NCBI GenBank assembly: GCA_050728815.1
Contig: JBOHKB010000371.1
Location: forward strand, 1 to 54,749
Source: Propylenella sp.
GTDB taxonomy: Bacteria; Pseudomonadota; Alphaproteobacteria; Rhizobiales; Afifellaceae
Direction of reading: 5' to 3'
DNA: 54,749 bases
This document shows positions 20,409 through 54,749 of the stretch, piece after piece. A program made the translations under genes and the position numbers. How positions within the stretch are numbered: the stretch's first letter is position 1; each line of letters opens with the position of its first letter. Below the pieces are notes generated by a model. The model was not told the origin of the DNA. It saw only the letters and a program-made list of their open reading frames with translations, and did no database searches.

Positions 20409-20417
20409 GGTGCACCA

Positions 20418-36893: not shown

Positions 36894-36901
36894 GGCTGGG
36901 A

Positions 36902-39522: not shown

Positions 39523-39837
39523 TCAGCCCGGAGGAACATCCCGCCAAACCGTCACCGGCGCGGCGGTTGCGCCAAACAACCGATTGCCCCATCTCCGAGT
39601 AGATGGCAGAACAATCAGATCTCCGCACCAGCCGTACATCCCTTCAGTGCAGCCGTTGGTGACCACGGATTTCCGCCTGTGATCTGGCTTTTTGAACTAA
39701 GGAGAACCTGCGGCTGAGACCTGAGGTTGGGACGCTCGCTATAGAGAGGCCCATCGCCTTATTCCTGACGATCCTTTGAATCTATTAGATAGCCGAGGGG
39801 CGGTGGCGACCTGCTGCCGATCTGGTGGCTGACTACA

Positions 39838-40551
39838 ATGGTGTGGGGGAATGTCGTGGCGGCGAAGCGAATGAGGGTGGAGCCCGATTGGGATGCGTAT
39901 CTGCGTCAGTTTGAGCAGAACTATGAGACCCTCAACTACTCCAAGAACTTGTCGTCCCGCGTGCTCGCCCATAGCCACCATGTGCTGGAGGCTATGCTCT
40001 CCCCAAAGCTCCATTTTCCGCGTGTCGTGGAGGTAGGTGCGGGGTCCGGAATCCACTTTGCCAGCGTCCGGCACGGATTCGACCGCTATCTAATGACGGA
40101 CGGCAACCCTCATATGCTAGAGCAGGCGAGGCGAAAGACCGGTGCGGATCATCGCTTTGATTTCCAGCGTGAGGACGCGTCACGGCTCTCTTTCCCGGAC
40201 GATGCCTTCGATCGCCTGATCGCCGCACACGTCCTGGAACATCTTCTCAATCCCCACGAAGTGTTGAGAGAGTGGGCGCGCGTCGTGAAGCCGAGCGGGA
40301 TCGTGTCCCTTGTTCTCCCTTCTGACCCAGGTTTCCTCTGGCGCTTCGGCCGGCGTCTTGGGGTCCGGCGGCGTGCAGAGGCGGCCGGGATGGAGTACGA
40401 TTACTGGATGGCGAGGGAGCACGTAAACTCTATCTGGAATCTCGTGACCCTTATCCATTACTATTTTGACGAGGTCGAAGAGCGATGGTGGCCATGCAGG
40501 CTCCCCGCCCCTGATGTCAACCTCATCTATGCGGCCAACATCCGCGTGTAG
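39838..40551 (+). CDS. class I SAM-dependent methyltransferase
   Basis: 237 aa. VVEVGAGSGIHF (motif I), FDRLIAAHVLEHLLNPHEVLREWARVVKPSGIVSLVLP. Confidence 0.75.
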   Translation: MVWGNVVAAKRMRVEPDWDAYLRQFEQNYETLNYSKNLSSRVLAHSHHVLEAMLSPKLHFPRVVEVGAGSGIHFASVRHGFDRYLMTDGNPHMLEQARRKTGADHRFDFQREDASRLSFPDDAFDRLIAAHVLEHLLNPHEVLREWARVVKPSGIVSLVLPSDPGFLWRFGRRLGVRRRAEAAGMEYDYWMAREHVNSIWNLVTLIHYYFDEVEERWWPCRLPAPDVNLIYAANIRV

Positions 40552-40555
40552 TCGG

Positions 40556-40906
40556 ATGCAGATTCTAACCATTCTAGCTTGTGTCGCGGCTATCGTCGCG
40601 GGCCAGTTGCTGTTCAAGTTGGTCGCGATCGAGCTTGGCGCCCAAAACCTCATGGCGTTGGCGACCAGTCCGAAGGCTGCATTTCTGCTGGGAGTCGCAC
40701 TTCTGCTCTATGCAGCTGCGACCTTTGCGTGGGTGTGGGTGCTGCAGGGTGCGCCGCTGAGCCGCGCCTACTCCTTCATGTCGCTCAGCTTCGTGGCCGT
40801 CCCGATTCTGGCGGCCATGTTCTTAGGGGAAACCCTGTCGATACGCGCAGCCGCCGGGACTGCCCTGATCGTCGCCGGTATCCTGGTCAGCGCGAGCGAG
40901 CTCTAG
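40556..40906 (+). CDS. half-size EamA/SMR-like (DMT superfamily) 4-TM membrane protein, ArnE/ArnF-like
   Basis: Internal ATG 40556 of track ORF 40466..40906. MQILTILACVAAIVAGQLLFKLVA...SRAYSFMSLSFVAVPILAAMFLGETLSIRAAAGTALIVAGILV. Confidence 0.6.
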   Translation: MQILTILACVAAIVAGQLLFKLVAIELGAQNLMALATSPKAAFLLGVALLLYAAATFAWVWVLQGAPLSRAYSFMSLSFVAVPILAAMFLGETLSIRAAAGTALIVAGILVSASEL

Positions 40907-40973
40907 GCCGAAGATGCGTGCACGGAGGTACTCGGCACTGTTAGCCACCTTTGATCTTCGAAGGGGTCGCCGG

Positions 40974-43004
40974 ATGAAAGCTGTGAGATTCGCGCTTCTC
41001 GTGCTTGCGGCGGGATATGGCCTGGTCACCGCCGCCCTACTTTGGAACTGGCGGTACGTTTCTCCCTATGCCGCACCCGCCTACACGCAGGAACTGCTCG
41101 ATCGCTTCGAGCGCGGCTCGGTCGCCGACTTGACGCCGGAGTTGAGAAAGCTGAGGCGGTTCAGCCCGGCGATCGCCCTGATTCTTGAGGGCCAGCTGGC
41201 GGAGCAGGAAGCGCAGGTCGGCCGGGATCCCCTCAGAGCGCTAGCGACTGCACGTCAAAAATTTGCGGCGGCCGCCCAAATGGGTGGATCCACCGCGCAC
41301 GAGGCTTATGTCCGCCTCGCGCTCCTGCTGAAACGCCACCAGGTGCCCGGGGAGGACCGTTTCGACGTCGCAGACCTTCTCGAACGGGCGAGGTCGCTCG
41401 GCTCCTCGCGAGCCGCTTACGAGTTGGGCCTACTGCATGAATCTGGGGAAATCGTGGGCCGGAACCGGAGGCGAGCGCTCGCTCTCTTTCAGGAGGCCGC
41501 CGCCTACGTCCCCGAAGCCGCCTTAAAGACCGCACACTACGTCGATTCGGGCGAAATCGAGGGGCTTAGCCGGAGCTACGTGGAAGACCTCCATGAGCGG
41601 GCCCGCAGCACTTTCGAAAAGCGAATCGCGGCGACCGGATCACCGCAGGCGATGCTCGTGCTTGCCCGCCTTCACCGTGACGGGTCTTTCGGCACTCCAA
41701 ATTATTACGAAACAGTGCGCTGGCTCACGCGGGCCTCGGAAGCCGGCAACCAGCAAGCGACCTACGAGCTCGCGCTGTTTTATTGGCAGACCAACACAGG
41801 ATTTCGTGATGTTGCGAGAGCGCGGAAGATGTTCGGCTCCCTTGCGGAGGCAGGGTTTGTCGACGCCCTGGTCAAGCTCGGACAAATGCAAGAACTCGGA
41901 ATAGGTGGGCCCAGGAATGTGACTGGCGCCGTCGAACTCTACGCGGACGCCGCTGAACGCGGTTCCGGTGAAGGGCTCCTGCGCTACGGGCAGGCGCTGC
42001 GCGACGGCCGCGGCGTGCCGAAGGACCTGCCTGCCAGCTTCGGGATGCTCAAGCGCGCCGCCGAGCGTGGAAGCTCAGCGGCAGCTCTCGAACTGGCGCG
42101 GGCCTACGAAGGCGGACTGGGCGTCGGGCACGATCCGGAGGCAGCGGTCAGTTGGTATCGCATCGCCGCAGATCGAGGCTCCAGGACGGCGATGGTCTGG
42201 CTGACCCGAGCATACGCGGAGGGCGAGGTCACCGAGAGCGACGAGGGACGCAGCCTTGAATGGGGACTGCGCGCAATCGACGCGGGCGCCGATCAAACGG
42301 CGATTGTGAGGAAAGTTGCGATCGGACTAATCGAGGGAGAGGAGATCGAGCTCAACAGAGAGAGAGGGTTCAGGCTGATCCTCTCGCTGGCGGAGCGAGG
42401 TGACGGCGCGTCAATGCTGCAAGTCGCGCGCTGCTACGCGTTCGGGATAGGCGTGCAGCAGGATCCGGCCGCGGCGATCCAGTGGTACCAGCGTTCCGCC
42501 GAGACCGGACGCACCGCAGCGTACTGGGAACTTGCTCGCGCCTACGCCTCGGGATTCGGGGTGGAACTCGACTCGACGCTTGCCTACGACTTCATGGTGA
42601 GGGCAGCGAACGGCGGATACGCCGCCGCCATGGTCGACCTTGGCCGCATGTACGTTACCGGATTCGGGGCTGTCCAAGATCTTCCTGAGGGAGAGCGGTG
42701 GTTCAGGGCGGCCGCAGAGAAGGGCAGCTTGGAAGCGATGCTCGAGCTCTCAAACCTGCATCGCGAGGGGCTTGTCCAAGGCGCGTCCCCAGAGCAGGCG
42801 GTTGAGTGGTTGAAGAAGGCCGCTGCTGCCGGCAGTGCCCGGGCGAAATACGTTTTGGCGCTTGCCTATCTTGAGGGGGATATCGTGTCGCAGGACCGCC
42901 ACGCCGCAGAAGCCCTGCTTCTGGAGTCGGCGGCGCAAAACCACGCGCCGGCCAAAGTCCGCCTCCTGAGCCTCGGGCGTCCGGCCCCGGTGGTCACTGA
43001 ATGA
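40974..43004 (+). CDS. Sel1-like repeat (SLR/TPR-like) protein with an N-terminal membrane anchor; AlgK-analogous scaffold candidate
   Basis: Track ORF 40914..43004 trimmed to ATG 40974 (MKAVRFALLVLAAGYGLVTAALLW; no lipobox Cys). It contains many ~36-aa repeats of the form A..W...AA..G...A...L, for example PEAAVSWYRIAADRGSRTAMVWLTRAYAEG. Confidence 0.75.
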   Translation: MKAVRFALLVLAAGYGLVTAALLWNWRYVSPYAAPAYTQELLDRFERGSVADLTPELRKLRRFSPAIALILEGQLAEQEAQVGRDPLRALATARQKFAAAAQMGGSTAHEAYVRLALLLKRHQVPGEDRFDVADLLERARSLGSSRAAYELGLLHESGEIVGRNRRRALALFQEAAAYVPEAALKTAHYVDSGEIEGLSRSYVEDLHERARSTFEKRIAATGSPQAMLVLARLHRDGSFGTPNYYETVRWLTRASEAGNQQATYELALFYWQTNTGFRDVARARKMFGSLAEAGFVDALVKLGQMQELGIGGPRNVTGAVELYADAAERGSGEGLLRYGQALRDGRGVPKDLPASFGMLKRAAERGSSAAALELARAYEGGLGVGHDPEAAVSWYRIAADRGSRTAMVWLTRAYAEGEVTESDEGRSLEWGLRAIDAGADQTAIVRKVAIGLIEGEEIELNRERGFRLILSLAERGDGASMLQVARCYAFGIGVQQDPAAAIQWYQRSAETGRTAAYWELARAYASGFGVELDSTLAYDFMVRAANGGYAAAMVDLGRMYVTGFGAVQDLPEGERWFRAAAEKGSLEAMLELSNLHREGLVQGASPEQAVEWLKKAAAAGSARAKYVLALAYLEGDIVSQDRHAAEALLLESAAQNHAPAKVRLLSLGRPAPVVTE

Positions 43005-44884
43005 ACTCAGTCGCTGACGCAACGAGTGCACTCGACGGATTTGGAGGACATCGCCTGAGGGCGCCCGGTCCGTTAACACTCGCGACAAGGTCCGTCCTGC
43101 TGGTCGCCGTCGACATGGCGATCTTGCAGATTCTCGTCACCCAATTTGGCGCAGGTCCGTTCACGGCCCGGCTCGCCTCTCTTTTGATGGCTACGGCCGC
43201 CTTGGCCTGGTGGGGCTCGCGCTCTGTCGATCCGTCGGCAGGACTACACCTCCCCGCCTTCTTGCTCGGCCTGGTTACCGACTATTTCGCCTATGCAGCC
43301 ATCGTCCATCACATCGGCGCAATCTCCCAGCTTCCCACGCTCGCTGTGCCGGCAAGCTATGCGATCGGCCGGTTGGTCTGTTTTGTCGCCACCCGCGTCG
43401 CAAACCTGCGCAAGCGCTCCAATTTCGATGGCAGCCTCCGGACGGCCAACTCCATTGGTATCCGTGAGTTGGCCGTAGTGTTGGCGGCTGCCTGTGCCGT
43501 TGGGCTGTCGGGCAACTACGCGCTGAACGCCCTCCTGGCCGCGCTCGACAAAGAGCCGCTGCGGTCAACGCTGCGCCATGCCTTCGAGGTGGGGGACCTG
43601 CAGATCGCCTCGGCTTTGGTCGGAAACAGCGACCTCGGCGTCCACCAGACGACCGACTGCCTCATTTTCGATATGGCGTCCCAGGAAACCATCGATCCGG
43701 CTCTCTATCTGCTGGCGGGCGCCCGAACGGAGGGCGCATCCGGCTATTTTGGATCGAACTGCGCCGCGCTGAGGGACCGCCTCATCGGCGACACCGTGGT
43801 TCGCGGCTCGAACTGGTATCTGCGCTACCTGCACGGAGATCGGGCGGTAGCCATCCTGCTTCTGAAGTTTCTCTCGGTGCGCGAGCTGAGGGTGACCCTG
43901 AAAGCCTCGTGCTACGGGATCTTCGGGCTGGGGATTGTAATGAACCTTTTGCTTGCCGTGTGGCCGTCGGGCGGCGGCAGCTTTTCGTGGAGGCCGGATC
44001 ACGTTGCGCTGGCGCTGATCGGCGTCCCGTTTCTCACGTTCTTTGGCATCCCCTATTTCGGCCAATCCATAACCATGGCGCCTGCGGCCTTTGTGGTCGG
44101 GCTCTTTCTCATGGCCGTGAGCGTTCTCGTATGGCTGAACCGCCTGACGGAGAGAACAGCCGTATTTCTCGCGATCGGGTATGGGCTGCTGACGGCTTAT
44201 TTTGAATTCCTGACCGGCTATGCTCCTGTGGGGGCCTGCGTCCTACTGGCTCTCGGAGCCATCATCGGATCGTCGAGGGCCATGTCGCTTTGGCAGCTGA
44301 CGCGGTGGACGACGCTCACCGTCGGCGCCTTCGCCAGCGCCTTGATAGGAATGTTTGCCCTGCATCAGGTCGTGACAGCAGCCTTCCACCCCTTAGGGAA
44401 GCAGATCCTTCTTTCCTTTCTTTTTGCTCTCTCAGTGCGCATGGGTGGGACGACCGAAAGCGCCGGCGGCGAGGTGATCACGCCGATTTCATTTACCGAC
44501 CTCGGCAACGCCCTCCTCGCCCATTTGCCCCATCTTGGAGTCTTCGGCGAAACCGCGGCCTTCGGAATCATTTTGGCGTCGCTTGGCCTGTGCCTGTTCC
44601 TCACCTGCGACATCCTGGTCAGCCGGCTCACGCTGGCCGACAAGGCCTGTTTTCTGCTTGCCTCAGGTTCCTTCCTTCCCGTCGGGCTCTGGATTCTGTT
44701 GTTCAAGAACCACACCGTCGTTCATTCCAGTTTCATGGTACGGCTCCTCGTCGTGATCCCGTTGGCGGCGTTTTTGAGCCTCTACCTCTGGGCGTTTTTC
44801 TTGCCTCGCCTCAGGGCCCAACGCCCTGTGAAATTGCGCGAGGGGCGGGACGGAATGGCGGGCAGTCGCTTCAGCGGTACTTGA
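43001..44884 (+). CDS. 627-aa polytopic membrane protein of unknown function; N-terminal ~130 aa resemble a GtrA-like 4-TM domain
   Basis: The start overlaps the Sel1 gene stop (ATGA). There are 12 or more hydrophobic segments plus a ~130-aa soluble loop (DKEPLRSTLRHAFEVGDLQ...YLRYLHGDR). I recognise no MBOAT, Wzy or GT-A motifs. Confidence 0.6.
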   Translation: MNSVADATSALDGFGGHRLRAPGPLTLATRSVLLVAVDMAILQILVTQFGAGPFTARLASLLMATAALAWWGSRSVDPSAGLHLPAFLLGLVTDYFAYAAIVHHIGAISQLPTLAVPASYAIGRLVCFVATRVANLRKRSNFDGSLRTANSIGIRELAVVLAAACAVGLSGNYALNALLAALDKEPLRSTLRHAFEVGDLQIASALVGNSDLGVHQTTDCLIFDMASQETIDPALYLLAGARTEGASGYFGSNCAALRDRLIGDTVVRGSNWYLRYLHGDRAVAILLLKFLSVRELRVTLKASCYGIFGLGIVMNLLLAVWPSGGGSFSWRPDHVALALIGVPFLTFFGIPYFGQSITMAPAAFVVGLFLMAVSVLVWLNRLTERTAVFLAIGYGLLTAYFEFLTGYAPVGACVLLALGAIIGSSRAMSLWQLTRWTTLTVGAFASALIGMFALHQVVTAAFHPLGKQILLSFLFALSVRMGGTTESAGGEVITPISFTDLGNALLAHLPHLGVFGETAAFGIILASLGLCLFLTCDILVSRLTLADKACFLLASGSFLPVGLWILLFKNHTVVHSSFMVRLLVVIPLAAFLSLYLWAFFLPRLRAQRPVKLREGRDGMAGSRFSGT

Positions 44885-45019
44885 ACACCGCATCTATCCC
44901 AAGAAATCTTTTCAGTCGCCGCCAGGCTGCCATCTTTTTGGCACGCCGCCGCACTCTATTGGTTCCGGCGGCTGGCATCTGCCTTGCTCCTCGCACAGCG
45001 GCGAACGGGGTCAAGTTCA

Positions 45020-46333
45020 ATGAAAATCAGCGTGTTCGGGATCGGCTACGTAGGCGCGGTCTCCGCAGCGTGCATTGCCAACGACGGTCACGAGGTAGTG
45101 AGCGTCGACGTCAATTCAGAGAAGGTGAAAGCGATCAACGCCGGGAGGTCCCCGATCTTCGAACCCGGCCTACCGCAGGCAATCGGAAGCGCGGTGCGAG
45201 AAGGCCGGTTGACCGCCACTTCCGACACAATGCAAGCGATTCGCGAAACCGACCTCTCTATGATCTGCGTCGGAACGCCCAGTCGTCCGAATGGATCGCT
45301 CGACACGAGCTCTATCGTCCGCGCTGCCGACACCATAGGGGCAGCGTTGCGCGAGAAGTCGGTGTTCCATGCCGTTGTGGTACGCTCCACGATTCTTCCC
45401 GGTACGACCGAGAACGTCGTGATTCCGGCGCTCGAGCGCGCTTCAGGAATGAAGGCCGGGCAGTTTGGTTTGGCCTACTACCCCGAGTTCCTGCGCGAGA
45501 CGACCGCAATCCAGGATTACTACAATCCAGGCACGATTGTTTTCGGCAAGCACGGACAGGACGGCCGGACCATCGCAATGCTGATGGAGCTATGCAGCAA
45601 CCTGCCAGTTGCGCCGACTGTCCTGCCAATCCGAGGAGCCGAGGCACTGAAGTATGCCAACAACGCGTGGCATGCATTGAAGGTGAGCTTTGCAAACGAA
45701 ATAGGCAATGTGTGCAAGGCCTTTGGGGTCGACAGCTGGGAGGTCATGGACGTCCTCTGCTCGGACACGCGGCTCAATATTTCGCCGGCATACCTCCGTC
45801 CTGGCTTCTCTTTCGGCGGATCGTGCCTCCCAAAGGATCTTCGGGCAGTTCGCCACGCCGCGCGCCAGCTCGACGTGGCGACGCCGGTTCTCGACGCTAC
45901 CCAGATGGCAAACGACCTGCAGCTCTCCAAAGCCTTTGAAATGATTGCGCAGTCGAACTCCCGCCGCGTAGGGATGATCGGCCTGAGCTTCAAGAGCGAA
46001 ACCGACGACCTGCGCGAAAGCCCATTGGTGGAACTCGCCGAGCGCCTCCTTGGCAAGGGATTTGACCTGCGCATTTTCGACCCGAATGTCTTCGTGTCGA
46101 GTCTCACGGGCACCAATCTGGAATACGTGCGGGCGCACCTGCCGCATCTGTCGGACCTGCTCGTCGGAGAAGCCGACGAACTCGTGCAACACAGTCGCAC
46201 GATTGTGATCGGCAAGAACGGTCCCGTTGCCGAGGAAGTACTCTCGAAAGTCGGAATAGACACCACGGTCATTGACTTGGTGCGGGTGCGCCGCCTGCCG
46301 CGCGCGTCCACGTACGACGGAATCTGTTGGTGA
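45020..46333 (+). CDS. algD: GDP-mannose 6-dehydrogenase
   Basis: Track ORF 44984..46333 trimmed to ATG 45020 (437 aa). MKISVFGIGYVGAVSAACIANDGHEVVSVDVNSEKVKAINAGRSPIFEPGL, ICVGTPS, NPEFLRE-type YPEFLRETTAI, PGFSFGGSCLPKDLRA and TDDLRESPLVELAE. It is colinear with P. aeruginosa AlgD as I remember it. Confidence 0.85.
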   Translation: MKISVFGIGYVGAVSAACIANDGHEVVSVDVNSEKVKAINAGRSPIFEPGLPQAIGSAVREGRLTATSDTMQAIRETDLSMICVGTPSRPNGSLDTSSIVRAADTIGAALREKSVFHAVVVRSTILPGTTENVVIPALERASGMKAGQFGLAYYPEFLRETTAIQDYYNPGTIVFGKHGQDGRTIAMLMELCSNLPVAPTVLPIRGAEALKYANNAWHALKVSFANEIGNVCKAFGVDSWEVMDVLCSDTRLNISPAYLRPGFSFGGSCLPKDLRAVRHAARQLDVATPVLDATQMANDLQLSKAFEMIAQSNSRRVGMIGLSFKSETDDLRESPLVELAERLLGKGFDLRIFDPNVFVSSLTGTNLEYVRAHLPHLSDLLVGEADELVQHSRTIVIGKNGPVAEEVLSKVGIDTTVIDLVRVRRLPRASTYDGICW

Positions 46334-46369
46334 AAAGTCTGGGGGCGCGTCGCGCGTAGAAGCGGTTCG

Positions 46370-47875
46370 ATGGCGGGTTTGCTTGTCTACGCTCTGCTGC
46401 TTGCTGCGGCACTCCTTGTGGCTCCGTCGGAGCTCTATGACGCCGGGTCAGCCTACTTCATCCTCATTATCGGAGTGGTCGGCCTTTGGCGTTATGGGTG
46501 GGCGCTCGTTCATTTGGCGCGCGCTCTCATCTACAGAGGCCTGGTGTTTCCGCGCTGGCGTCGCAGGGCGAACGCAATGGGAGAAGCGGGGCGTCCGAGC
46601 CACGTCTATCTCCTCATCACCAGCTTTCGCATAGACTCGGAGACCACCCGCCGCGTCTACCAGGCGGCGCTGGATGAGGCCGCTGCGCAAACGTCGCCTG
46701 TGACGATCGTCGCGTCGATCGTCGAAATGGGCGACCAGCGGCTGATCAAACAACTGTTTGCCGCCGCCAAGCCGCCACCACATGTAGGGATATGCTTCGT
46801 CCGTATTCCGGGGACCGGGAAGAGGGACGCTCTGGCGTCAGCCTTCCGGTCGATCTCATCGCTGCGGCCTCCTAGGGACGCCGTCGTTTGCGTTATCGAC
46901 GGCGACACCATTCTCGAACCCGGTGTGCTGGAAGGCACCCTTCCGTTCTTCGCAATGTTCCCCCGAGCGCTGGCGCTAACCACCGACGAGACCTGCGACG
47001 TAGTCGGGTCACGGATCTTCCGCGAATGGTACGCCATGCGGTTCGCGCAAAGGCAGATCCTTATGTGCTCGGTAGGTCTCTCGCGGCGGGTTCTGACTCT
47101 GACGGGGAGGATGTCGGCTTTCCGCGCCGAAGTAGTAACCGACCCGGTTTTCATTCAGGCGGTGGAGCACGACGAGATCGAGCACTGGCGCCTCGGCCGC
47201 ATCCGGTTCTTGACCGGCGACGACAAGTCCAGCTGGTTCTTCGTGCTCAGCCGCGGGGGCGAGATGCTCTACATTCCCGATGTTTCGATCCGCACAGTCG
47301 AACATCCCCCCTACCCGAGCTTCTTCGGGTCGGCGACAGCCCTGATGATCCGCTGGTTCGGCAACATGCTCCGTACCAGCGGCCGCGCCATTCGTCTGGG
47401 ACCTCGGCCGATGGGGCTGTTCACTTGGTGGTGCATCGTCGATCAGCGCCTGTCCATGTGGACGACCCTTATGGGACCGGTGGTCGTGATCCTGCTGTCG
47501 ACCCTGGTCGATCCTTTCGTCCTGCCGCTCTACCTTTTGTGGGTTGCCCTGACACGTTATTTGCAAGCCGTCCTTCTTTTGACTGTTCGCGAGCAAGTCA
47601 CTGTTTACTATCCATTTCTTCTTTATTTCAATCAGGTTTATGGTTCACTGATTAAAATCTATATTCTTTTCCGCTTAGATAGACAGAAGTGGACGCGACA
47701 GAATACGAGCTCGCCTCGCTCCACCGGGGCAGGCACCTACCGCCGCTTCGCGCCGCTTTCGTCGGCCTACATGCACACCCTGGCCCTGGGGCTGCTAGTC
47801 GTGAGCCTGGCCACAGTCATCGGCGTGTTGCCTCTGGTGCTCCCGGGCGACATTGTTGACTTCCCGGGTGGGTGA
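46370..47875 (+). CDS. alg8: mannuronan (alginate) synthase catalytic subunit, GT2
   Basis: 501 aa. ITSFRIDSETTRRVY, RIPGTGKRDALA, VIDGDT, LTGRMSAFRAEVVTDP, RFLTGDDKSSWF, VEHPP and YFNQVYGSLIKIYILFRLDRQKWTRQ. These match remembered Alg8 blocks along the whole length. Confidence 0.85.
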   Translation: MAGLLVYALLLAAALLVAPSELYDAGSAYFILIIGVVGLWRYGWALVHLARALIYRGLVFPRWRRRANAMGEAGRPSHVYLLITSFRIDSETTRRVYQAALDEAAAQTSPVTIVASIVEMGDQRLIKQLFAAAKPPPHVGICFVRIPGTGKRDALASAFRSISSLRPPRDAVVCVIDGDTILEPGVLEGTLPFFAMFPRALALTTDETCDVVGSRIFREWYAMRFAQRQILMCSVGLSRRVLTLTGRMSAFRAEVVTDPVFIQAVEHDEIEHWRLGRIRFLTGDDKSSWFFVLSRGGEMLYIPDVSIRTVEHPPYPSFFGSATALMIRWFGNMLRTSGRAIRLGPRPMGLFTWWCIVDQRLSMWTTLMGPVVVILLSTLVDPFVLPLYLLWVALTRYLQAVLLLTVREQVTVYYPFLLYFNQVYGSLIKIYILFRLDRQKWTRQNTSSPRSTGAGTYRRFAPLSSAYMHTLALGLLVVSLATVIGVLPLVLPGDIVDFPGG

Positions 47876-47876
47876 G

Positions 47877-49022
47877 ATGGACGCACGAAATCCACTCGTC
47901 CACGAAGCTGAAAGTCAGCGCCAGCACCTGCGGGTGAGCCTGCCGATTACGGCGCGCATCGATGGGGTAACGCGCACCGTGACGAACTGGTCCGTGGGAG
48001 GAATGTGCGTCCTGCTGGACGGGCCGCGGCCCCAACCTGGGGACGTGTTCGAGGCGGAGCTCATCTTCCCCACCGAAGGCATCGAGATCACCACGCGGCT
48101 GACATGCGAAGTCGTTCATAACGAAGGCAAGCTCGGAGGGACCGGGTGTCGTTTTGTCGAACTCTCCCCCGGCAGTCTCTCCATCCTTCAATACATGATA
48201 GGCGCGTACGTTTCCGGGGAATTGGTCCAATTGGGCGACGTGCTCTCGATCCTCAAACGTGACAACTTCACTCAGAGGAGAAAGCCCAGGGCGAGCGAGG
48301 GCCCGACTCGGGCAGCGCGCGTCCTGGTTCCTCTGAAGAGGGCCGCCAAGATCTCCGTACTTGCCGCGAGCGGCATCGCTCTGGTCCTCTATGTCGCAGC
48401 GGCGATCTACAAGCGTCTGTACATCGTCGACATGGTCGGCTACGTTGGAAGCCCAGCGACAATCTTCGTGCGCGCAACGAGCGACGGGGTCGTCACCGAG
48501 TTCCCGCCGCTTGAAAGAGGCGCCAGGGTCGGACGCGGTCAGGTGCTCGGTCAGCTCGAGGATCCGGAGGGTACTCCGCGCCCGCTCATCAGTCCGTGTG
48601 ACTGTGTTGCGGTTGCGAATACGGCACCCGTCGGAAGCGTTCTCCAACGAGGCGCTCCCGTCGTGGTTCTCGCGCCCGAGAACTCGGAGGTGACTGTAGT
48701 CGCCCAGGTTTCCGTGGAGGAGTCGGCAGCGATCCAAGAAGGTGATCCATCGCACCTCACTATGTTCAACGGCCGCAGCGAAATGGAGGGCACGGTGATC
48801 TCCATGCAGCGTTTCACGCCGATTGAATATTCGACGGAACGAGGCGCTCCGACGCTGAAAAGCTATGTCATTCTGGTCATCCGCCCACATGGCGAGCTCA
48901 CGCTGCAGGACTATGCGGAACCCGTCCGCGTTAGGATCAACACGTTCTGGAACGAGATCTCGGAGGACGCTTGGCGACTTGTCCCGCTGGAGGCAATTGA
49001 AACTGAATCTGCAACTCGGTAG
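47877..49022 (+). CDS. alg44: Alg44-like c-di-GMP-binding co-polymerase (PilZ domain + TM + membrane-fusion-like periplasmic domain)
   Basis: Internal ATG 47877, one nt after the alg8 stop. PilZ motifs are intact: SQRQHLRV (RxxxR) and TNWSVGG (D/NxSxxG). Further along are LKRDNFTQRRK, a TM segment, and SPCDC in the periplasmic part. Confidence 0.85.
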   Translation: MDARNPLVHEAESQRQHLRVSLPITARIDGVTRTVTNWSVGGMCVLLDGPRPQPGDVFEAELIFPTEGIEITTRLTCEVVHNEGKLGGTGCRFVELSPGSLSILQYMIGAYVSGELVQLGDVLSILKRDNFTQRRKPRASEGPTRAARVLVPLKRAAKISVLAASGIALVLYVAAAIYKRLYIVDMVGYVGSPATIFVRATSDGVVTEFPPLERGARVGRGQVLGQLEDPEGTPRPLISPCDCVAVANTAPVGSVLQRGAPVVVLAPENSEVTVVAQVSVEESAAIQEGDPSHLTMFNGRSEMEGTVISMQRFTPIEYSTERGAPTLKSYVILVIRPHGELTLQDYAEPVRVRINTFWNEISEDAWRLVPLEAIETESATR

Positions 49023-49135
49023 CGAAGCGCCTTACCTTTTATTATCCATACCGGAATCGATTGGGCCCGAAATTGCTCTGAAAGGTAAAGCTGTCGGAGT
49101 CAGCGCTCCGATCGGTTAAGATATGAAGCCGTATC

Positions 49136-49155
49136 TCTCCGGCAATGACCGGAGA
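49136..49155 (+). terminator. hairpin tctccgg-caatga-ccggaga followed by a T-rich stretch, in the convergent intergenic region after alg44
   Basis: Read directly. The 7-bp stem is followed by gcgtgatgcgcTTTCTTTT about 10 nt downstream. Weak terminator candidate. Confidence 0.25.
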
Positions 49156-49256
49156 GCGTGATGCGCTTTCTTTTGGCGACTACCGCCGTCTGCCTGAAAG
49201 TGCTGCTGTTCGGGCACTATGTGATGCCGCTTCTGAGCTGAACAACCGCTCACAGG

Positions 49257-50420
49257 TCAGGTCCGCCTCGGTCGGTTCGGATTTGGATCATCAAATACTG
49301 GTAATCCCAACGCTCGCATTATCGCCGGAAGGCGCGAAAATCGTACCTGCACTTCCGTTCCGATCAGCATTGGCAGAAGCTCGGACTCCGGCTTGGCGAC
49401 GACTGCGGCCAGGCCGGGAATGCCCTTTTCCGTCATGTCGGACGGACTGACCGCCGGCATTGAATTCCGATGAACCGAAACGATCCTTGCCCCGGCACGC
49501 GCACTCGTTCCCAGCAGCCTGATGGTGATGTCGTCTCCGACGCTCACGTCACTCAACATGGCCAGCGGGAGAGCGGCGCGTATCTCCATTGCGGCGTCGA
49601 GCGGTATGAACCGAGCGACAATTGCCCCCTTGAAGACAGAGTTGCCGCTGTGGACCGGCAGATCGCCGATGAAGCAATCGCATGGCGATGTGACGGGGAC
49701 GGTCTTGCCTCCGGTCGTCTGAATGAACCCGATGAGTTCCCGGGCAGCGACGCGGCGCGCGTGGTGAGTGATGTAGCTGTAGAAGACGCCAGGTCTTTCG
49801 GCGCGGAGATACTCGATGTCGGGCGAGGTAACGAACCCGCTGGCATGGAAGAGAATGAGCTTCTGGTAGCCGGTGATACCAATGACAGCCAAGGCGACGA
49901 ATAACGCCGCAGCAATCTTGGCGCGGCTCGCCGCCTTCTGCCAGACGCGGGCGAGCCGTTGATTGATCCTTGGCTCCGACTTGGGCTCGGAGGAGGGCGA
50001 CATTAGCGCGCCAAAGAGCACCTGTGAGGGAATTCGTGACTTCGCGTTGTATGCCGTTGCTGTAGCCTCGAGCCGAGCATCGGGCCGGCAGATGATGGCG
50101 TGATAGGTATCGCCCCGAACGAGGACCAGTCGCGTCTTGTCGATCTCCGCACGGTGGCGAACCACCATGCCCTGGAAGCGGAAGGCAACTTCAGCAAATC
50201 TGAGCGCACCAGGGTCCTCCGTAAGCACAAATGCGACGGCCTTGCCGACCACCGTCAATGGGACCCGAAACTTCTTTGCAGCGGAGCTCAAGCTGACCGA
50301 CCGCTCTCCTCTATCCTTCTCGACTGCTGATACTTCCGCCGGCCCTGAAATCTTTGGCAGCGCTCGACTTCTCGCGCTCACAATCTGTTCCCGCCGGGAG
50401 GCAGAGGCCGAGGCAATCAT
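49257..50420 (-). CDS. Alg44 paralogue with a degenerate PilZ-like N-terminal domain (TM + membrane-fusion-like periplasmic domain retained)
   Basis: Track ORF 49257..50531 trimmed to ATG 50420, overlapping the upstream gene's stop (ATGA); 387 aa. It shares TM placement and the TSPCDC motif with Alg44. RxxxR is replaced by AKKFR and D/NxSxxG by DPGALR. Confidence 0.65.
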   Translation of the reverse strand: MIASASASRREQIVSARSRALPKISGPAEVSAVEKDRGERSVSLSSAAKKFRVPLTVVGKAVAFVLTEDPGALRFAEVAFRFQGMVVRHRAEIDKTRLVLVRGDTYHAIICRPDARLEATATAYNAKSRIPSQVLFGALMSPSSEPKSEPRINQRLARVWQKAASRAKIAAALFVALAVIGITGYQKLILFHASGFVTSPDIEYLRAERPGVFYSYITHHARRVAARELIGFIQTTGGKTVPVTSPCDCFIGDLPVHSGNSVFKGAIVARFIPLDAAMEIRAALPLAMLSDVSVGDDITIRLLGTSARAGARIVSVHRNSMPAVSPSDMTEKGIPGLAAVVAKPESELLPMLIGTEVQVRFSRLPAIMRALGLPVFDDPNPNRPRRT

Positions 50421-52651
50421 GGATAGGAGAGATAGCGGGTTACGGAAAAGAACAATCTCAAGGTCTCGTCGTCGAGCGCTTCGATGTTCGAGCGCCTGAC
50501 ACGATAGCTTGCGCTCGCCTCCGCGCGCCACCCGTCTGCGAAGTCGCGCCCAATCGCGGCCTCCAGCCGGTGCGTGACATCCGACCGCGGTGGAATGCCT
50601 GGAGCCGCAGACGCATCGTGCTCGGAATAACCCAGTGCATACGAGGCTCCCGCGTAGAATTCATCCCACCCTCCGATCGCAAACACTTTTCGCAGTCCGA
50701 GATTGATCGCGAATTCTGTCTTGCTGTCAGACCGCTCTTCGACCTCGTAGCGCTTCGCAATGAATCTCGAGCGGAGAGAAAGGTCCTCCACGATCTCGTA
50801 GGCGGCATCCAGCCGTGCTTCCAACCCGTACCCCTCGAGATCCGGATCGTCGTCCGACTTCTGCTCGACGATGAATGCCGCGCCGTAGTCGAAATCGCGC
50901 CTGAAGCCTCCGCTGAAGGAAAGGAAGGCATACGCATCGCTTCGGTAGGCGTCCGAGTCGATGAACCGTGTCCTGTAGCCGCCTCCCGCGCCGACTTCGT
51001 TTGTCGTGCCCGGGATGACGTGCAAGTATCCTGCACTGATGTCGGTCAGCTGACGGTCAAGGCTGCCTTCGTCGAAGTACCGGACGGCGTTCAATCGACC
51101 AAAGAGCGTCAACCTGTCTCCGTTCGCGCCGATCAGGTAGCTGTATGTGCCGCGCGCATCGAAGCCACCGAGTGTGCTGGGCCCACCGCTTCCTCCGATG
51201 ACCGTCTCGTCATCGATGATCGACTCGGATGCCGCCACGTTGCTGTCATAGCCCGCAGTGGCGGTCGCTGAGCCCGAGAACTGATGTCGCGAAAGCGCTC
51301 GTTCCAACCGCTCGTTCAGCACCTGGCCACGGTCCGGCAAGGGTTTGCCGGCCGTCTGCGATGCCTGATCAAGCATGGACAGAAGCCGGCCGGCTTCGCG
51401 CAGACGATTTGTGCGCGAATAGAGGTCCACAAGTCCGAAGACGGGGCCGGATCGCTCCAGCAACAAAGGCGGAGGGAGCGTGGAGGGATCTCCGCCGATG
51501 ACCTGCCGGTAGATCTGATCCGCTTGCTTCCAGCGGCCATGGGAGGCGTGCGCTCGCGCCAAGGCCACTCCGGCATCCTCTGAATCCGGGTTGTCCCGGT
51601 ACAGCGCCTCGAGACGCACGATCTTCTGACGCGGGGGAAGTCCATCCGCTTCGGCGATCTCCGCGCGCAAGCGGGCGATTTCGGCCTTTCGTTCGGCCTC
51701 CGCCTCGGCCAATCGCAACTTCTCCGCACGCGTGAGAGCCGCAGCCAGTCGCTGACGTGCATCATCGATTTGGTCTGCTTTCAAGGGACTGTCGGCTGTG
51801 CGCTCGAGCGCCGACAAATATTCGCGTGCCCTTGTTATGTTGCCTCGTTGGAGTTCCAGACGTAGTAGCCGCCCAAGGGATCGTTGGCGGACTTCCGGCT
51901 TGGATTCGGTCTGCGAGTCGGAGATCAGTCCAAGGTAGATATTCGCGGCCTCCTGTGCGTTGCCCGCCTGGTGAAGTAGGCCGGCTAGCAGATAGCGCGC
52001 CGAAAGGTTGGTGGGGTCCGAGGCGAGCTGGCGCGCTCGGTCAATCGCGAAGTCGCCTTGAAGCTGACGGACTTCTTCGAGAGCTTGGCGTTGCTCTGTC
52101 TTGTCGAGCGACGCGGTAAGCCTATTGACGAGGGAGCCGATGCGGATCTGCTGCTTGCCGGTCAGATCTTCGGCGTGGCTTGCCTCATCCAAAAGCTGCT
52201 GCGCTCGAGCAAAGTCTCCTTGCCGGATCTTTGCCGAGGCCCATTCCAGAATCACACGGACCCAGCTGGAAGGGTCTGTGTCTCCGACGAGTTCGAGCGC
52301 TTTCTGGAATTCAAGATCCGCCTCGCCGTATCGACCGGCCGCTACCAGCTCCCTGATGCGAAGGATCGCAGCGTCGATCCGAGACCGGACGCGTCTCCGC
52401 CCCGTCCGCTCTTCCAGCTCTGTTGTGATATCGAGCTGCTCCGAATCGATGATGGCATCGAACTCCTCAATCTCTGCCCCGAGTTGATCCGGGACCGGCT
52501 GGGCCCAAGTAGCCACGGGGCCGCCGGTGACTAACAAGAATGAAGATGCCAACAGAACGCGACGTGCCGCGAAGCCAGCTCCTAGACGGCTCGGCAGATT
52601 GGTTCGTCTGTCCAGGGCAGGCATCGCGGTCACATGGTTAGCCGGATGCAA
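50417..52651 (-). CDS. outer-membrane export protein candidate: signal peptide + TPR-rich periplasmic domain fused to a C-terminal beta-barrel
   Basis: 744 aa. N-terminus ...LLASSFLLVTGGPVATWAQ, then a helical TPR-like region (for example GRYGEADLEFQKALEL, GNAQEAANIYLGLI). The last ~300 aa show an alternating beta-strand pattern with aromatic-rich strand ends (...YRVRRSNIEALDDETLRLFFSVTRYLSYP). Confidence 0.65.
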   Translation of the reverse strand: MHPANHVTAMPALDRRTNLPSRLGAGFAARRVLLASSFLLVTGGPVATWAQPVPDQLGAEIEEFDAIIDSEQLDITTELEERTGRRRVRSRIDAAILRIRELVAAGRYGEADLEFQKALELVGDTDPSSWVRVILEWASAKIRQGDFARAQQLLDEASHAEDLTGKQQIRIGSLVNRLTASLDKTEQRQALEEVRQLQGDFAIDRARQLASDPTNLSARYLLAGLLHQAGNAQEAANIYLGLISDSQTESKPEVRQRSLGRLLRLELQRGNITRAREYLSALERTADSPLKADQIDDARQRLAAALTRAEKLRLAEAEAERKAEIARLRAEIAEADGLPPRQKIVRLEALYRDNPDSEDAGVALARAHASHGRWKQADQIYRQVIGGDPSTLPPPLLLERSGPVFGLVDLYSRTNRLREAGRLLSMLDQASQTAGKPLPDRGQVLNERLERALSRHQFSGSATATAGYDSNVAASESIIDDETVIGGSGGPSTLGGFDARGTYSYLIGANGDRLTLFGRLNAVRYFDEGSLDRQLTDISAGYLHVIPGTTNEVGAGGGYRTRFIDSDAYRSDAYAFLSFSGGFRRDFDYGAAFIVEQKSDDDPDLEGYGLEARLDAAYEIVEDLSLRSRFIAKRYEVEERSDSKTEFAINLGLRKVFAIGGWDEFYAGASYALGYSEHDASAAPGIPPRSDVTHRLEAAIGRDFADGWRAEASASYRVRRSNIEALDDETLRLFFSVTRYLSYP

Positions 52652-52783
52652 GGTCCGCAGCCATCAAGAAATTCCCAACCCAGCGCTACACGATGCATGC
52701 TGTGCAAAAGGCCGCTCATGTAAGGGGTGAATTTTGACGAAAGCTGGATCGCCGTTGCCGCACGGGTTAGTATCCTCGCCTCC

Positions 52784-53896
52784 ATGCCCAAGCATGCGGC
52801 GGTGAGATTTCTGCTTTTCCTCCTCTGGGGAGCGGCAGCCTCGGCTGCCACTTCTCCGGCATTCGCCCTGCGCGTGCCGTTTTCCGTCGACCTTCCCGCC
52901 GGTAGAGTGACTCAATCCGACCTGGAGAAGTGCGATCCCGCGCCGGCTCCCATCTCCGCACTTCCGACGCAGTCCCGTTACGAGCCGAACGACCCGACCA
53001 AATCTCGTGTCAATCCAACGCGTTCGCGAATCTATGACGCCCTGGTGAAGCCCCTGCGCGACTTTCAGGGCGGGATTGTGAAGCGAACCAACGCCTTCGT
53101 CCGGAGGCCCAAGAACAACGCGGATAGCGCCGCCTGCGCCCTGGCGTGGCTCAAGGCCTGGGCAGATGCCGACGCATTGAACCGACTGCCGAGCGATCAG
53201 GGCAGGCTCAACCGGGATCAGGCGCTCGCGGCCCTGGCATTCGGCTACCTTCAGCTTTCCAATGTCCGGGTGGAAGTGCCGGGGTTGAGAGGCGCCATCA
53301 GCACCTGGCTTCGTCGACTTGCGGAGGATTCCCGCCACTATTCCGATACGCAGACTGGGCCGGCGACTCGGTACAACAACCATCGGTACTTCGCCGCGCT
53401 CGCAGTAGCCGCTGTGGCCCTCGTCGTCGATGACAAATCGATGTTCGACTGGACGATGGACACGTTTGAGGAGGCCGTTTGCTCTGCGGGCGAGTTAGGT
53501 GAGCTGCCGCTTGAAATGCGCCGCGGCGGACGTTCGCGCGACTATCAAATTCTGGCTGTCGGGCCGCTGGTCATGCTTGCCGAGATCGGGCAGGTCAACA
53601 ACCAAGAGCCGTACGGAGAATGTAACAATGCCCTCCGTCGCATGGTGTCGTTTGCCCTGCGTTCAATCGATGATCCTTCTGAGGTCAGCCGCGTTTCCGG
53701 ACATGCGCAGCTGGAGCTCCCCGATGGGGAGCTGAAAGGGTTTCGCGTAGCGTGGCTAGTCCCCTATCTCAAACGGTTCCCCGATCCGCATTGGCAGAGA
53801 CGGGCCGGTGAGATCGGCGGCCTTTCAGCCACGGCCTTCGGCGGCAATCTGGAAACTCTGTTTGGACCCGTAACAAAGCCGCCCGCCACCGAATAG
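52784..53896 (+). CDS. algL: poly(beta-D-mannuronate) lyase (PL5 alginate lyase)
   Basis: Track ORF 52727..53896 trimmed to ATG 52784 (signal peptide MPKHAAVRFLLFLLWGAAASAATSPAFA). CALAWLKAWADADAL and NNHRYFAALAVAAVALV (compare the AlgL NNHSYW motif). 370 aa. Confidence 0.8.
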   Translation: MPKHAAVRFLLFLLWGAAASAATSPAFALRVPFSVDLPAGRVTQSDLEKCDPAPAPISALPTQSRYEPNDPTKSRVNPTRSRIYDALVKPLRDFQGGIVKRTNAFVRRPKNNADSAACALAWLKAWADADALNRLPSDQGRLNRDQALAALAFGYLQLSNVRVEVPGLRGAISTWLRRLAEDSRHYSDTQTGPATRYNNHRYFAALAVAAVALVVDDKSMFDWTMDTFEEAVCSAGELGELPLEMRRGGRSRDYQILAVGPLVMLAEIGQVNNQEPYGECNNALRRMVSFALRSIDDPSEVSRVSGHAQLELPDGELKGFRVAWLVPYLKRFPDPHWQRRAGEIGGLSATAFGGNLETLFGPVTKPPATE

Positions 53897-53915
53897 GCGA
53901 CGTTCAGGAGTGGTC

Positions 53916-54749
53916 ATGCGAACAGGAAGGTTCCAGGCGCCGATAAGCATTGTCGCCCGACTTGCGCTCGCGCTACTGATTTTCACGGCGACGACATCAT
54001 CCTTACTTGCTCAGGCTAAGCGGGACGTAGCTTCCGAGCAACAGCGGATCGATGCGCTTACCCGGGAAATCACGATTGCCCTCGCGGCAGCCAGCAACGC
54101 GGTTGACCGCTCCGCGAGGAAGGTCAGCCTGCTTCAGGCACTCGCCTCGCTTGACGCCCTGGCTCTCGAATCGGCGGAGACCGCTGGCGCGTTCGATGTT
54201 CAGGCGCTCCTGCAAGAAACGGCATCTGCGGTGCTGGCCGATCCGAGCGATGCCTCGTTCGAGGGAGCCAGGGACGATCTGACGATTCTGCGGACAATTG
54301 TGAACCGGATTGGGGATCCGGTCGTGCGCCTTCCAAATCTGATCGAGATCGCCAAGCTGGAGTTGCGCAACGGCCAAACGACCAGCAGCAAAGGCACCTT
54401 GCTCAAATCGAGCGACTTGGTGACGCGAATGGATCCGGGCGACGTGCAGGATCGGTTTCTCGCCGGCCTAATCCGTGCCGCCATGCCGATCGAGTCGCTC
54501 GAGTTGATGATCCTCGCCGAGTGGATTCCGCGGGTGGGCGACGCCACGCTCCGTAGCACCGCAGCGAGAGCCTTCGCCCTCTATCTCCTTTCCCACAACC
54601 GCGTGAACAACGAGGTTCGTCAATCGATCGGAATCAGAGACATCGCACGGCGTGACCAGCGCTTGGCGGAACTGGCCCAAGGCTATGCGAGCACCCGTCG
54701 TTTTCGAAACGCTCTCCTCTCCGCACTGACGATCGAAGTTGCAGGACTT
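53916..54749 (+). CDS. secreted alpha-helical protein of unknown function, 3' end beyond the window
   Basis: Not in the ORF track (no in-window stop). ATG 53916 follows a caggag SD. MRTGRFQAPISIVARLALALLIFTATTSSLLAQA (signal peptide), then a Leu/Ala-rich sequence open to 54749 (278 codons). Confidence 0.55.
   Translation, partial: MRTGRFQAPISIVARLALALLIFTATTSSLLAQAKRDVASEQQRIDALTREITIALAAASNAVDRSARKVSLLQALASLDALALESAETAGAFDVQALLQETASAVLADPSDASFEGARDDLTILRTIVNRIGDPVVRLPNLIEIAKLELRNGQTTSSKGTLLKSSDLVTRMDPGDVQDRFLAGLIRAAMPIESLELMILAEWIPRVGDATLRSTAARAFALYLLSHNRVNNEVRQSIGIRDIARRDQRLAELAQGYASTRRFRNALLSALTIEVAGL

Follow-up and report, generated by a model that had tools for sequence, protein, structure and literature searches.

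An alginate-type exopolysaccharide locus of Propylenella sp. with a putative Gtr-like decoration module and a probable AlgG-domain fusion gene cut by the contig end

Background

To our knowledge, alginate biology rests almost wholly on Pseudomonas and Azotobacter, in which the alginate operon has the gene order algD-8-44-K-E-G-X-L-I-J-F-A. The locus described here lies at 39.8–54.7 kb of a contig of Propylenella sp. (JBOHKB010000371.1), the whole of which (54,749 bp) is the window of this analysis. Like the Pseudomonas/Azotobacter operon it has AlgD, Alg8, a PilZ-bearing Alg44 and a lyase of the AlgL type (polysaccharide lyase family 5, PL5), its algD-alg8-alg44 order is equal and tightly packed, and it probably has an AlgG-domain epimerase. 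The differences are considerable. The AlgK lipoprotein is replaced by a membrane-anchored Sel1 protein of 676 amino acids (aa); there is no recognizable AlgE, and instead a tetratricopeptide-repeat (TPR) protein with a C-terminal domain of its own; AlgX, AlgI, AlgJ, AlgF and AlgA are missing from the window; and an extra, PilZ-less Alg44 paralogue is present. The presumed epimerase would be a fusion of ∼1200 aa with an N-terminal extension of ∼750 aa, the genes fall into three orientation blocks, and a module of GtrA-polytopic, ArnE/F-like and methyltransferase proteins has been added. The most likely overall reading, given a probability of about 0.68, is a synthase-dependent alginate-type locus with an AlgG fusion that continues past the contig end and a Gtr-like periplasmic decoration module.

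A glycosyltransferase of family 2 (GT2) that works on polyprenyl phosphate, together with GtrA and a polytopic protein, is the hallmark of periplasmic glycosylation from a lipid donor. The classic role of Gtr-type and Arn systems is in modifying O-antigen and lipid A (PMC11127046). The locus shares with the GtrA/GtrB/GtrC systems of Shigella and Salmonella O-antigen a small GtrA-type protein and a polytopic protein with a loop after the first transmembrane (TM) helix (PMC11127046), and the loci of its relatives include a polyprenyl-phosphate GT2 like GtrB and AglJ. Unlike those systems, its presumed acceptor is a synthase-dependent exopolysaccharide rather than an O-antigen linked to undecaprenyl diphosphate, its polytopic protein cannot be linked by sequence or fold to known GT-C families, and its contig carries no such GT2 but a methyltransferase and an ArnE/F-like protein.

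From environmental genomes other than Pseudomonas, a survey reports ‘atypical alginate operons’ (Bundalovic-Torma et al. 2020, PMC7112194). These are rearranged loci that have lost algKE and subsets of algGXLIJF, and the Propylenella locus belongs to this class. The available part of that survey scores canonical loci by presence and absence, whereas the Sel1, TPR, Alg44-paralogue, AlgG-fusion and Gtr-like components go unmentioned in it.

The alginate-type core

Four genes make up the recognizable core:

45020–46333, + strand: AlgD, GDP-mannose 6-dehydrogenase, 437 aa (PDB 1mfz; three UDPG_MGDP_dh Pfam domains)
46370–47875, + strand: Alg8-type GT2 polysaccharide synthase, 501 aa, with N- and C-terminal TM segments (Pfam Glyco_tranf_2_3, 4.5e-36)
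47877–49022, + strand: Alg44 co-polymerase, 381 aa, with a cytoplasmic PilZ domain, one TM segment and a periplasmic domain like HlyD and membrane fusion proteins
52784–53896, + strand (open reading frame, ORF, open from 52727): PL5 AlgL-like periplasmic lyase, 370 aa, with a signal peptide

Judged by homology, the locus is an alginate-type (GDP-mannuronate) exopolysaccharide cluster and its core a known system. The dehydrogenase aligns over residues 1–437 with residues 1–436 of the GDP-mannose dehydrogenase of P. aeruginosa (PDB 1mfz; 457 bits, 4.6e-136), compared with 251 bits (2.6e-73) for the best UDP-glucose dehydrogenase, and the GGSCLPKD motif with the catalytic Cys is visible in its translation. 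On these scores the enzyme is clearly nearer AlgD, and a glucuronan or UDP-glucose dehydrogenase reading was rejected; a better alignment to UDP-glucose dehydrogenase had been named in the first-pass annotation of this DNA as a finding that would refute it. For Alg8 there are more than 2000 homologues, of which the top ones share 53–71% identity and are named Alg8 or mannuronan synthase by the Joint Genome Institute (JGI). The closest come from Alphaproteobacteria, for example Zavarzinia, Asticcacaulis and Phenylobacterium. The DGDT, TGDDKS and MIRW motifs can be seen in the translation; the protein has neither a PDB match nor a match to a specific NCBIfam model, so that its identity as Alg8 comes via the JGI-named homologues.

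Alg44 contains PilZ (4.4e-8) and HlyD_3 (9.7e-10) domains according to Pfam, and its best PDB match is the PilZ domain of Alg44 itself (4rt1, 2e-10). Both PilZ motifs, RQHLR and NWSVGG, are present, and the pattern RQHxR plus DWSVxG is kept across eight Alg44 sequences from related loci aligned with that of the window. The PilZ domain is intact, and the synthase is probably gated by cyclic di-GMP (c-di-GMP). An Alg44 homologue of only 311 aa, with no PilZ match, occurs in the nearly complete alginate locus of Asticcacaulis sp. AC402 (L010, 11644–12579), reflecting either a miscalled gene start or a differently organized c-di-GMP control. The lyase matches Pfam Alginate_lyase (3e-31) and the AlgL structure 4ozv (4.8e-32), with its NNHRYF aligned to NNHSYW of AlgL, and scores 228 bits, under the cut-off of 366, against the NCBIfam polysaccharide lyase model NF001469. 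While the window has one such lyase, two PL5 lyases each are found in or beside the clusters of Zavarzinia (L003, 5821–6954 and 13275–14417, both − strand) and L009 (13203–15429).

The order algD-alg8-alg44 is kept in 10 loci. The first-pass annotation, made from the DNA letters and translations, had proposed an alginate-type locus with algD-like and alg8-like genes, an alg44-like gene with intact PilZ motifs, a PL5 lyase bearing NNHRYF and, by inference, a c-di-GMP-gated synthase. PDB, Pfam and the JGI-named homologues bear out the gene assignments, and the gating is probable; the core matches alginate families better than UDP-glucose dehydrogenase or the cellulose and poly-N-acetylglucosamine (PNAG) systems, and every gene that it listed was found where it had been placed (Pfam, PDB, hhalign, translations). 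The same holds for the accessory genes discussed below: the methyltransferase, the half-size EamA protein, the non-lipoprotein Sel1 protein, the 627-aa polytopic protein and the Alg44 paralogue.

Genes expected from the canonical operon are missing from the window, as had also been noted. No large ORF has a Pfam match to the MBOAT, ALGX or AlgF domains, and AlgI, AlgX and AlgF of Asticcacaulis found nothing in the window at E≤0.01 as tblastn queries. Similarly, there is no NTP_transferase or MannoseP_isomer match that would indicate AlgA in the window, and tblastn with the Zavarzinia AlgA was negative; algA may lie elsewhere in the genome.

Related loci

The compared loci carry numbers with the prefix L. 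The metagenomic locus L001, on a 1.5-Mb contig, has a TPR protein with the same type of C-terminal domain, an Alg44 paralogue, a Sel1 protein, a GT2, GtrA, a polytopic protein (42% identity), algD, alg8 and alg44. In L009 the same set occurs minus the large TPR protein, plus two PL5 lyases and an AlgG fusion. The cluster of Zavarzinia sp. CC-PAN008 consists of the TPR protein with C-terminal domain, two lyases, the polytopic protein, GT2, Sel1, an AlgG fusion, algA, alg44, alg8 and algD, while L018 (Logan SRR22387825, 1–10459) combines GT2, the polytopic protein, the TPR protein with C-terminal domain, AlgX, a lyase, GtrA, Alg8 and AlgI.

The Alg8 loci that have no polytopic gene (L010, L013–L016) encode AlgI and AlgX, and some of them AlgF; a further one, L011, has neither AlgI nor AlgX within range. 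The idea that the Gtr-like module strictly replaces acetylation fitted this pattern (4 loci versus 5), and was dropped since L018 has both. Since the GT2/GtrA/polytopic module, AlgX and AlgI all occur in L018, one locus can have both modification systems.

Overall, alginate-type loci that depart from the canonical gene set and encode Sel1 proteins and AlgG fusions are a common feature of environmental Alphaproteobacteria, and the window represents a rarer subtype within this family, defined by the polytopic gene. The rarity of the architecture that the first-pass annotation had implied does not hold at the level of the family, and PMC7112194 also speaks of atypical operons. In the literature searched there is no description of a Gtr-like module in alginate-type loci, of the unannotated polytopic family, or of the AlgG fusion or the PilZ-less Alg44 paralogue.

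The truncated gene at the contig end

The last ORF of the window, which the first-pass annotation did not mention, bears on the question of an epimerase:

53916–54749, + strand: truncated ORF, 278 codons, with a signal peptide, running off the contig end (N-terminus homologous to AlgG-domain fusions of ∼1200 aa)

Related loci encode an AlgG-domain protein of ∼1200 aa in the gene that comes after the lyase (or after alg44 or manC); 8 of the 10 related Alg8 loci have such a fusion behind the lyase or alg44. The C-terminal ∼370 residues are the AlgG domain (PDB 4nk6, 218 bits, with DPHD aligned), and the NCBIfam AlgG model gives 264–330 bits. Fusions were located at 15557–19150 in L009, 14159–17938 in L002 and 13904–17659 in L011, and also in L013–L016. 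In these non-Pseudomonas loci the AlgG domain forms the C-terminal third of secreted proteins of ∼1200 aa (852 aa in L016), behind an N-terminal extension of ∼750 aa that is Ala-rich, poorly conserved and without a Pfam match.

By blastp the truncated ORF is collinear with the L009 protein (residues 76–273 against 76–274, 28.5% identity, 1e-12), an identity level equal to that between accepted members of the extension (28% for L009 versus L002). When a profile of four AlgG-fusion N-termini was run against the 496 ORFs of the window, this ORF was the sole match (60 bits, 3.9e-18), the next best having an E of 1.2; as a control, 500 shuffles and the reversed sequence reached at most 5 bits. The AlgG-fusion N-terminus was missed by tblastn in the window and recovered by blastp and the profile hidden Markov model, which is treated here as a difference in seeding sensitivity, with the shuffles as a check.

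On this homology the truncated ORF is quite likely the first part of an AlgG-domain gene interrupted by the contig end; the catalytic part would lie about 2.2 kb farther on. Accordingly, the polymer is probably epimerized, that is, a true alginate. A near-identical Logan contig from the same organism (L012, SRR27067755) breaks within ∼40 bp of the window end, and since two independent assemblies break inside the presumed AlgG-fusion gene, a repeat or coverage problem just past position 54749 is suggested. The apparent absence of an epimerase is thus probably an artefact of where the contig stops. In general, a gene that seems missing at a contig edge is weak evidence of its loss. As regards the earlier claim that algG is lacking, it stands for the AlgG domain within the window, while the loss of the gene, and with it the proposal of an unepimerized polymer, does not stand against a last ORF that matches the N-terminus of an AlgG-fusion homologue and follows the lyase as in the relatives. 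The first-pass annotation had itself named missing alg genes just downstream as a finding that would speak against it, and for algG this is nearly the situation encountered.

The GtrA-polytopic fusion and its partners

Three genes of the + block encode the putative decoration module:

39838–40551, + strand: class I S-adenosylmethionine (SAM)-dependent methyltransferase, 237 aa, first gene of the block (Pfam Methyltransf_11, 1.1e-20)
40556–40906, + strand (ORF open from 40466): small 4-TM protein of the drug/metabolite transporter (DMT)/EamA type, ∼116 aa (Pfam EamA, 1.1e-7)
43001–44884, + strand: GtrA-like::polytopic fusion, 627 aa, with a GtrA-like 4-TM part at ∼25–131 and a polytopic part at ∼150–615

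The GtrA part of the fusion is weakly matched by Pfam (0.0029, below the cut-off), by blastp (2e-4) and by tblastn with the GtrA of L001 (2.8e-7). Of ten members of the polytopic family that were sampled, three have a strong N-terminal GtrA domain (1e-21 to 6e-18), which shows that the fusion is recurrent; GtrA is a separate gene in L001, L009 and L018. The polytopic domain itself (∼470 aa) belongs to a family with 721 cluster representatives at E≤1e-3 in a full profile scan, 215 of them at E≤1e-30; a word-based search had found nine relatives. Pfam gave nothing significant for the polytopic domain of the window and seven members without a GtrA fusion (five of the ten representatives plus P0135 and P0160), and in the three GtrA-fused members its matches were confined to the GtrA part.

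From the sequence and an AlphaFold2 (AF2) model, the polytopic protein consists of an R/K-rich linker, a TM helix, a loop of ∼110 aa, about ten further TM helices and a C-terminal tail rich in R and K. Only 9 sequences went into the model (predicted local distance difference test, pLDDT, 70; predicted TM-score, pTM, 0.72). The loop, which contains the invariant residues D219, C220 and C254, is predicted to be periplasmic, and four more invariant residues (N570, H571, H575 and R581) lie near the C-terminus. An extracytoplasmic loop after the first TM helix is part of the general layout described for GT-C enzymes (PMC11127046), and the modelled layout resembles this generic one.

The evidence from neighbouring genes comes from the relatives. 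Their GT2, conserved at 68–80% across L001, L009, Zavarzinia and L018, ends in two hydrophobic segments, predicted to be TM segments, and adjoins the polytopic gene in four of the five alginate-type loci that have one. Its best matches are AglJ, dolichyl-phosphate hexose transferase and PpgS, all of which attach a sugar to polyprenyl phosphate. The GT2-GtrA-polytopic trio is found outside alginate loci too, in L008, a Methylococcus metagenome-assembled genome. The window does contain an ORF with a C-terminal GT2 domain (1929–3248, − strand; Glyco_tranf_2_3, 1.4e-15), ∼37 kb from the cluster; tblastn between it and the GtrB-like GT2 of the related loci was negative.

The small EamA protein aligns over its full length with the NCBIfam models for ArnF (47 bits, 2.9e-12, cut-off 99) and ArnE (40 bits, 4e-10, cut-off 92). 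It thus has the same architecture as ArnE/ArnF but scores below the equivalog cut-offs, and there are no arnT, arnC or other arn genes near it. On this similarity it is a candidate ArnE/ArnF-like flippase for a polyprenyl-phosphate-linked donor. The methyltransferase reaches no NCBIfam model at cut-off and has neither a signal peptide nor a TM segment, and is therefore cytoplasmic. No counterpart of either gene was seen in any compared related locus. The gene that makes the lipid donor may lie at another place in the genome; alternatively, the donor may be unlike the one used by the relatives.

Putative scaffold and export proteins

Between and beside the genes described so far are three that may concern export:

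40974–43004, + strand: Sel1-repeat protein, 676 aa (696 aa if the start is 40914), with an N-terminal membrane anchor (Pfam Sel1, seven repeats, 3.3e-59)
49257–50420, − strand: PilZ-less Alg44 paralogue, 387 aa, with a non-PilZ cytoplasmic N-terminal domain, one TM segment and an Alg44-like periplasmic domain
50417–52651, − strand: secreted TPR protein, 699–744 aa, with a C-terminal domain of ∼290 aa (TPR_19, 1.3e-15, in the N-terminal half; signal-peptide-like N-terminus)

The N-terminal TM anchor of the Sel1 protein has no Cys and no lipobox, so the protein is not a lipoprotein. It reaches 61.7 bits against the AlgK equivalog model (cut-off 700), and AlgK in the PDB (7ula) gives 37 bits versus 156 bits for generic Sel1 proteins. 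Orthologues are found in L001 (44%), Zavarzinia (35%) and L009 (42%), and by its position the protein is an analogue of AlgK. The second Alg44-like protein is related to Alg44 by blastp (2e-12), and hhalign aligns its residues 177–364 with residues 170–357 of Alg44 (probability 99.5%, E 2e-23), the SPCDC motif included; its N-terminus matches PilZ with a probability of just 1.7% by hhalign. It has orthologues in L001 (37%) and L009, and the same 387-aa gene call recurs in L012.

G, Y, F, S and D are abundant in the C-terminal domain of the TPR protein; GYDSNV stands at its start and FSVTRY at its end, and this composition and the motifs hint at a putative outer-membrane barrel. Homologues that include the domain are present in L001 (33% over 636 aa), Zavarzinia (25%, 1e-21) and L018 (30% over 448 aa); of the L009 homologue only 458 aa were seen, with no match to this domain. 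Pfam, PDB sequence and profile searches with the domain were all empty, and a word-based homologue search returned only the protein itself. A single-sequence AF2 model of the protein was unusable (pLDDT 31), and in a hydrophobic-moment test of amphipathicity the domain lay only ∼1.4 standard deviations above shuffles. Of the TPR/beta-barrel fusion put forward at first, then, the TPR half is firm and the barrel is not confirmed, having no Pfam or PDB match.

Like PgaA, BcsC and PelB, the protein is secreted, has N-terminal TPRs followed by a C-terminal domain, and is encoded in a synthase-dependent exopolysaccharide locus; unlike them, its C-terminal domain shows no sequence similarity and is a barrel only putatively. 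It is presumed to be an outer-membrane export component of the PgaA/BcsC/PelB kind, equivalent to AlgK and AlgE in one chain, and no match to an AlgE-like protein was found in the window. On the basis of conserved synteny, the Sel1 protein, the Alg44 paralogue and the TPR protein would together stand in for AlgK/AlgE as scaffold and exporter.

Proposed mechanism and alternatives

In the proposed mechanism, AlgD would oxidize GDP-mannose to GDP-mannuronate, and the c-di-GMP-bound PilZ domain of Alg44 would license Alg8 to polymerize and translocate polymannuronate; both steps follow from strong homology, the second also from the Pseudomonas paradigm. Part of the mannuronan would then be epimerized by the AlgG-domain fusion, to which the truncated ORF points. 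Domain logic and synteny suggest that the GtrA and ArnE/F-like proteins would bring a group linked to polyprenyl phosphate (most likely a sugar) into the periplasm, and that the polytopic domain would transfer this group from the lipid donor onto the nascent polymer, as in GtrA/GtrB/GtrC. The PL5 lyase would clear stray or misdirected polymer from the periplasm, as in the Pseudomonas paradigm, and the Sel1 protein, the Alg44 paralogue and the TPR protein would guide export, again from synteny and domain logic. Of the two outcomes originally offered for the polymer, a bare chain or one decorated by uncharacterized machinery, the second is favoured by the GtrA-polytopic fusion and by its relatives, which lie beside a polyprenyl-phosphate GT2. 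The specific proposal, that an alginate-type polymer is decorated or branched in the periplasm after polymerization by a new family of polytopic transferases, using a polyprenyl-phosphate-linked donor and flippases of the GtrA or ArnE/F type, is tentative and has somewhat less than even odds. In the variant of the window, with a methyltransferase in place of the GT2, the donor may be a different one, methylated or not a hexose.

Several results weigh against the reading of a decorated, epimerized alginate-type polymer. No AlgG domain was found inside the window by Pfam on all large ORFs or by tblastn with AlgG-fusion queries; all that the window holds is 278 residues of the N-terminal extension, which is poorly conserved (28% identity), and L001 has no AlgG fusion within ±10 kb. 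For the polytopic domain, Foldseek with the model from 9 sequences gave no PDB hit at E<0.1, the GT-C enzymes CeDPY19 and AftA had TM-scores of 0.17–0.20 with E>1, and a sequence profile found nothing among PDB sequences. As neither its model nor its sequence matches GT-C enzymes, the glycosyltransferase activity of the domain is proposed from context, that is, from the fusion and the neighbourhood. Distant members of the polytopic family occur in unrelated contexts (L004–L007, L017), a GtrB-like GT2 was not found on the 54.7-kb contig by tblastn, and the beta-barrel of the TPR protein was supported neither by the model nor by the PDB/profile and hydrophobic-moment tests. Finally, the literature searched contains no experimental study of any member of this locus type.

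Four alternatives were considered. An unlikely one is that the polytopic domain is not a glycosyltransferase, and either transfers an acyl or other non-sugar group in place of AlgI or is a component of the secretion complex that handles polymer or lipid. The missing resemblance to GT-C enzymes would fit, as would the invariant N570, H571, H575 and R581, the lack of AlgI and AlgX in four of the five loci with the polytopic protein, and a window with a methyltransferase instead of the GT2. However, GtrA fusions occur in several lineages, a highly conserved polyprenyl-phosphate GT2 is the neighbour in four of five alginate-type loci and in L008, and L018 has the module plus AlgI and AlgX, which argues against a simple replacement of acetylation.

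It is quite unlikely that the locus makes plain polymannuronate, neither epimerized nor acetylated, with accessory genes that serve as scaffold and export components only. The absence of AlgG, AlgX, AlgI, AlgJ and AlgF domains from the window is what this would predict, and the close relative L001 shows no AlgG fusion in its surroundings either. Against this stand the specific homology of the terminal ORF to the AlgG-fusion N-terminus in the syntenic position after the lyase, the presence of such fusions in 8 of 10 related loci, and the nature of the GtrA and ArnE/F-like domains, which are types of lipid-donor flippase and not scaffold proteins.

Less plausible again is that the methyltransferase, ArnE/F-like and GtrA-polytopic proteins act on another envelope glycan (lipopolysaccharide or capsule) and are mere neighbours of the alginate-type genes. 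O-antigen and lipid A are the classic Gtr and Arn targets (PMC11127046), the methyltransferase and ArnE/F-like genes are unique to the window among the compared loci, and distant polytopic homologues are found outside exopolysaccharide loci. Yet the polytopic gene is flanked by algD and by the Sel1 gene, which it overlaps by ATGA, and the same polytopic subfamily recurs in five independent Alg8 loci despite rearrangements, making this explanation very unlikely. A different polyuronide (e.g. glucuronan) or a non-uronic polymer, to which the best named NCBIfam match of the dehydrogenase (UDP-glucose dehydrogenase AglM, 333 bits, cut-off 670) and the lack of a specific Alg8 model match might point, is hardly credible given the 457 bits to P. 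aeruginosa GDP-mannose dehydrogenase against 251 to the best UDP-glucose dehydrogenase, and given the PL5 lyases, AlgG domains and GDP-mannose supply genes that accompany the core in relatives.

Gene layout and genomic context

By gene orientation the cluster falls into three blocks, as described in the first-pass annotation: a + block from 39838 to 49022, a − pair at 49257–52651, and a + block from 52784. Operon signals consist overall of ATGA overlaps and gaps of 1–7 nt. The stop of the Sel1 gene and the start of the polytopic gene (40974–43004 and 43001–44884, + strand) share an ATGA, as do the TPR gene and, downstream of it and translationally coupled to it, the Alg44-paralogue gene (50417–52651 and 49257–50420, − strand), and alg8 and alg44 are 1 base apart. 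No riboswitch or other RNA element was detected upstream of or within the cluster at E≤0.1, and a scan for promoters and terminators was uninformative (one promoter-like site versus 3.2 expected).

Before 38.4 kb there are Tct transporters and enzymes unrelated to the cluster. The genes at 26600–38407 encode two TctC receptors, two TctA and one TctB protein, a LysR regulator, an aldehyde dehydrogenase and a thiamine pyrophosphate (TPP) enzyme, an ordinary catabolic neighbourhood with no relation to the alginate-type cluster. The ∼1.4 kb that separate the TctA gene from the start of the cluster (38408–39837) have no ORF with a Pfam match or a coding-like GC content at third codon positions (GC3), and an Rfam search of them was empty; they may be a regulatory region or decayed sequence.

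Further upstream, a tRNA-Phe gene (11934–12009) coincides with a fall in GC from ∼68% to ∼60%. The high-GC side carries hisD, murA, maf and MMPL genes. After the tRNA gene come a type I restriction-modification system (HsdR 12217–14577, HsdM 14580–16037, HsdS 16034–17722) and two tyrosine integrases (17853–18953, − strand; 20418–21596, + strand), and the region at 12000–21600 looks like a tRNA-associated genomic island. A repeat of the tRNA-Phe 3′ end of the attachment-site (att) type, sought as a boundary of the island, was not present in the window. As the lower GC (∼60%) extends through the rest of the contig, the alginate-type cluster may itself be located on acquired DNA.

Significance

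The Propylenella locus is part of a large, unstudied alginate-type group of environmental Alphaproteobacteria, which has Sel1 and TPR proteins for AlgK/AlgE and a giant AlgG fusion. If the Gtr-like module does modify the polymer, there are natural alginate-like polysaccharides that bear side groups. It would mean that synthase-dependent secretion can be combined with periplasmic glycosylation, with relevance to the diversity of biofilm matrices and to alginate engineering, and it would add a new modification chemistry for synthase-dependent exopolysaccharides and a new family of glycosyltransferases.

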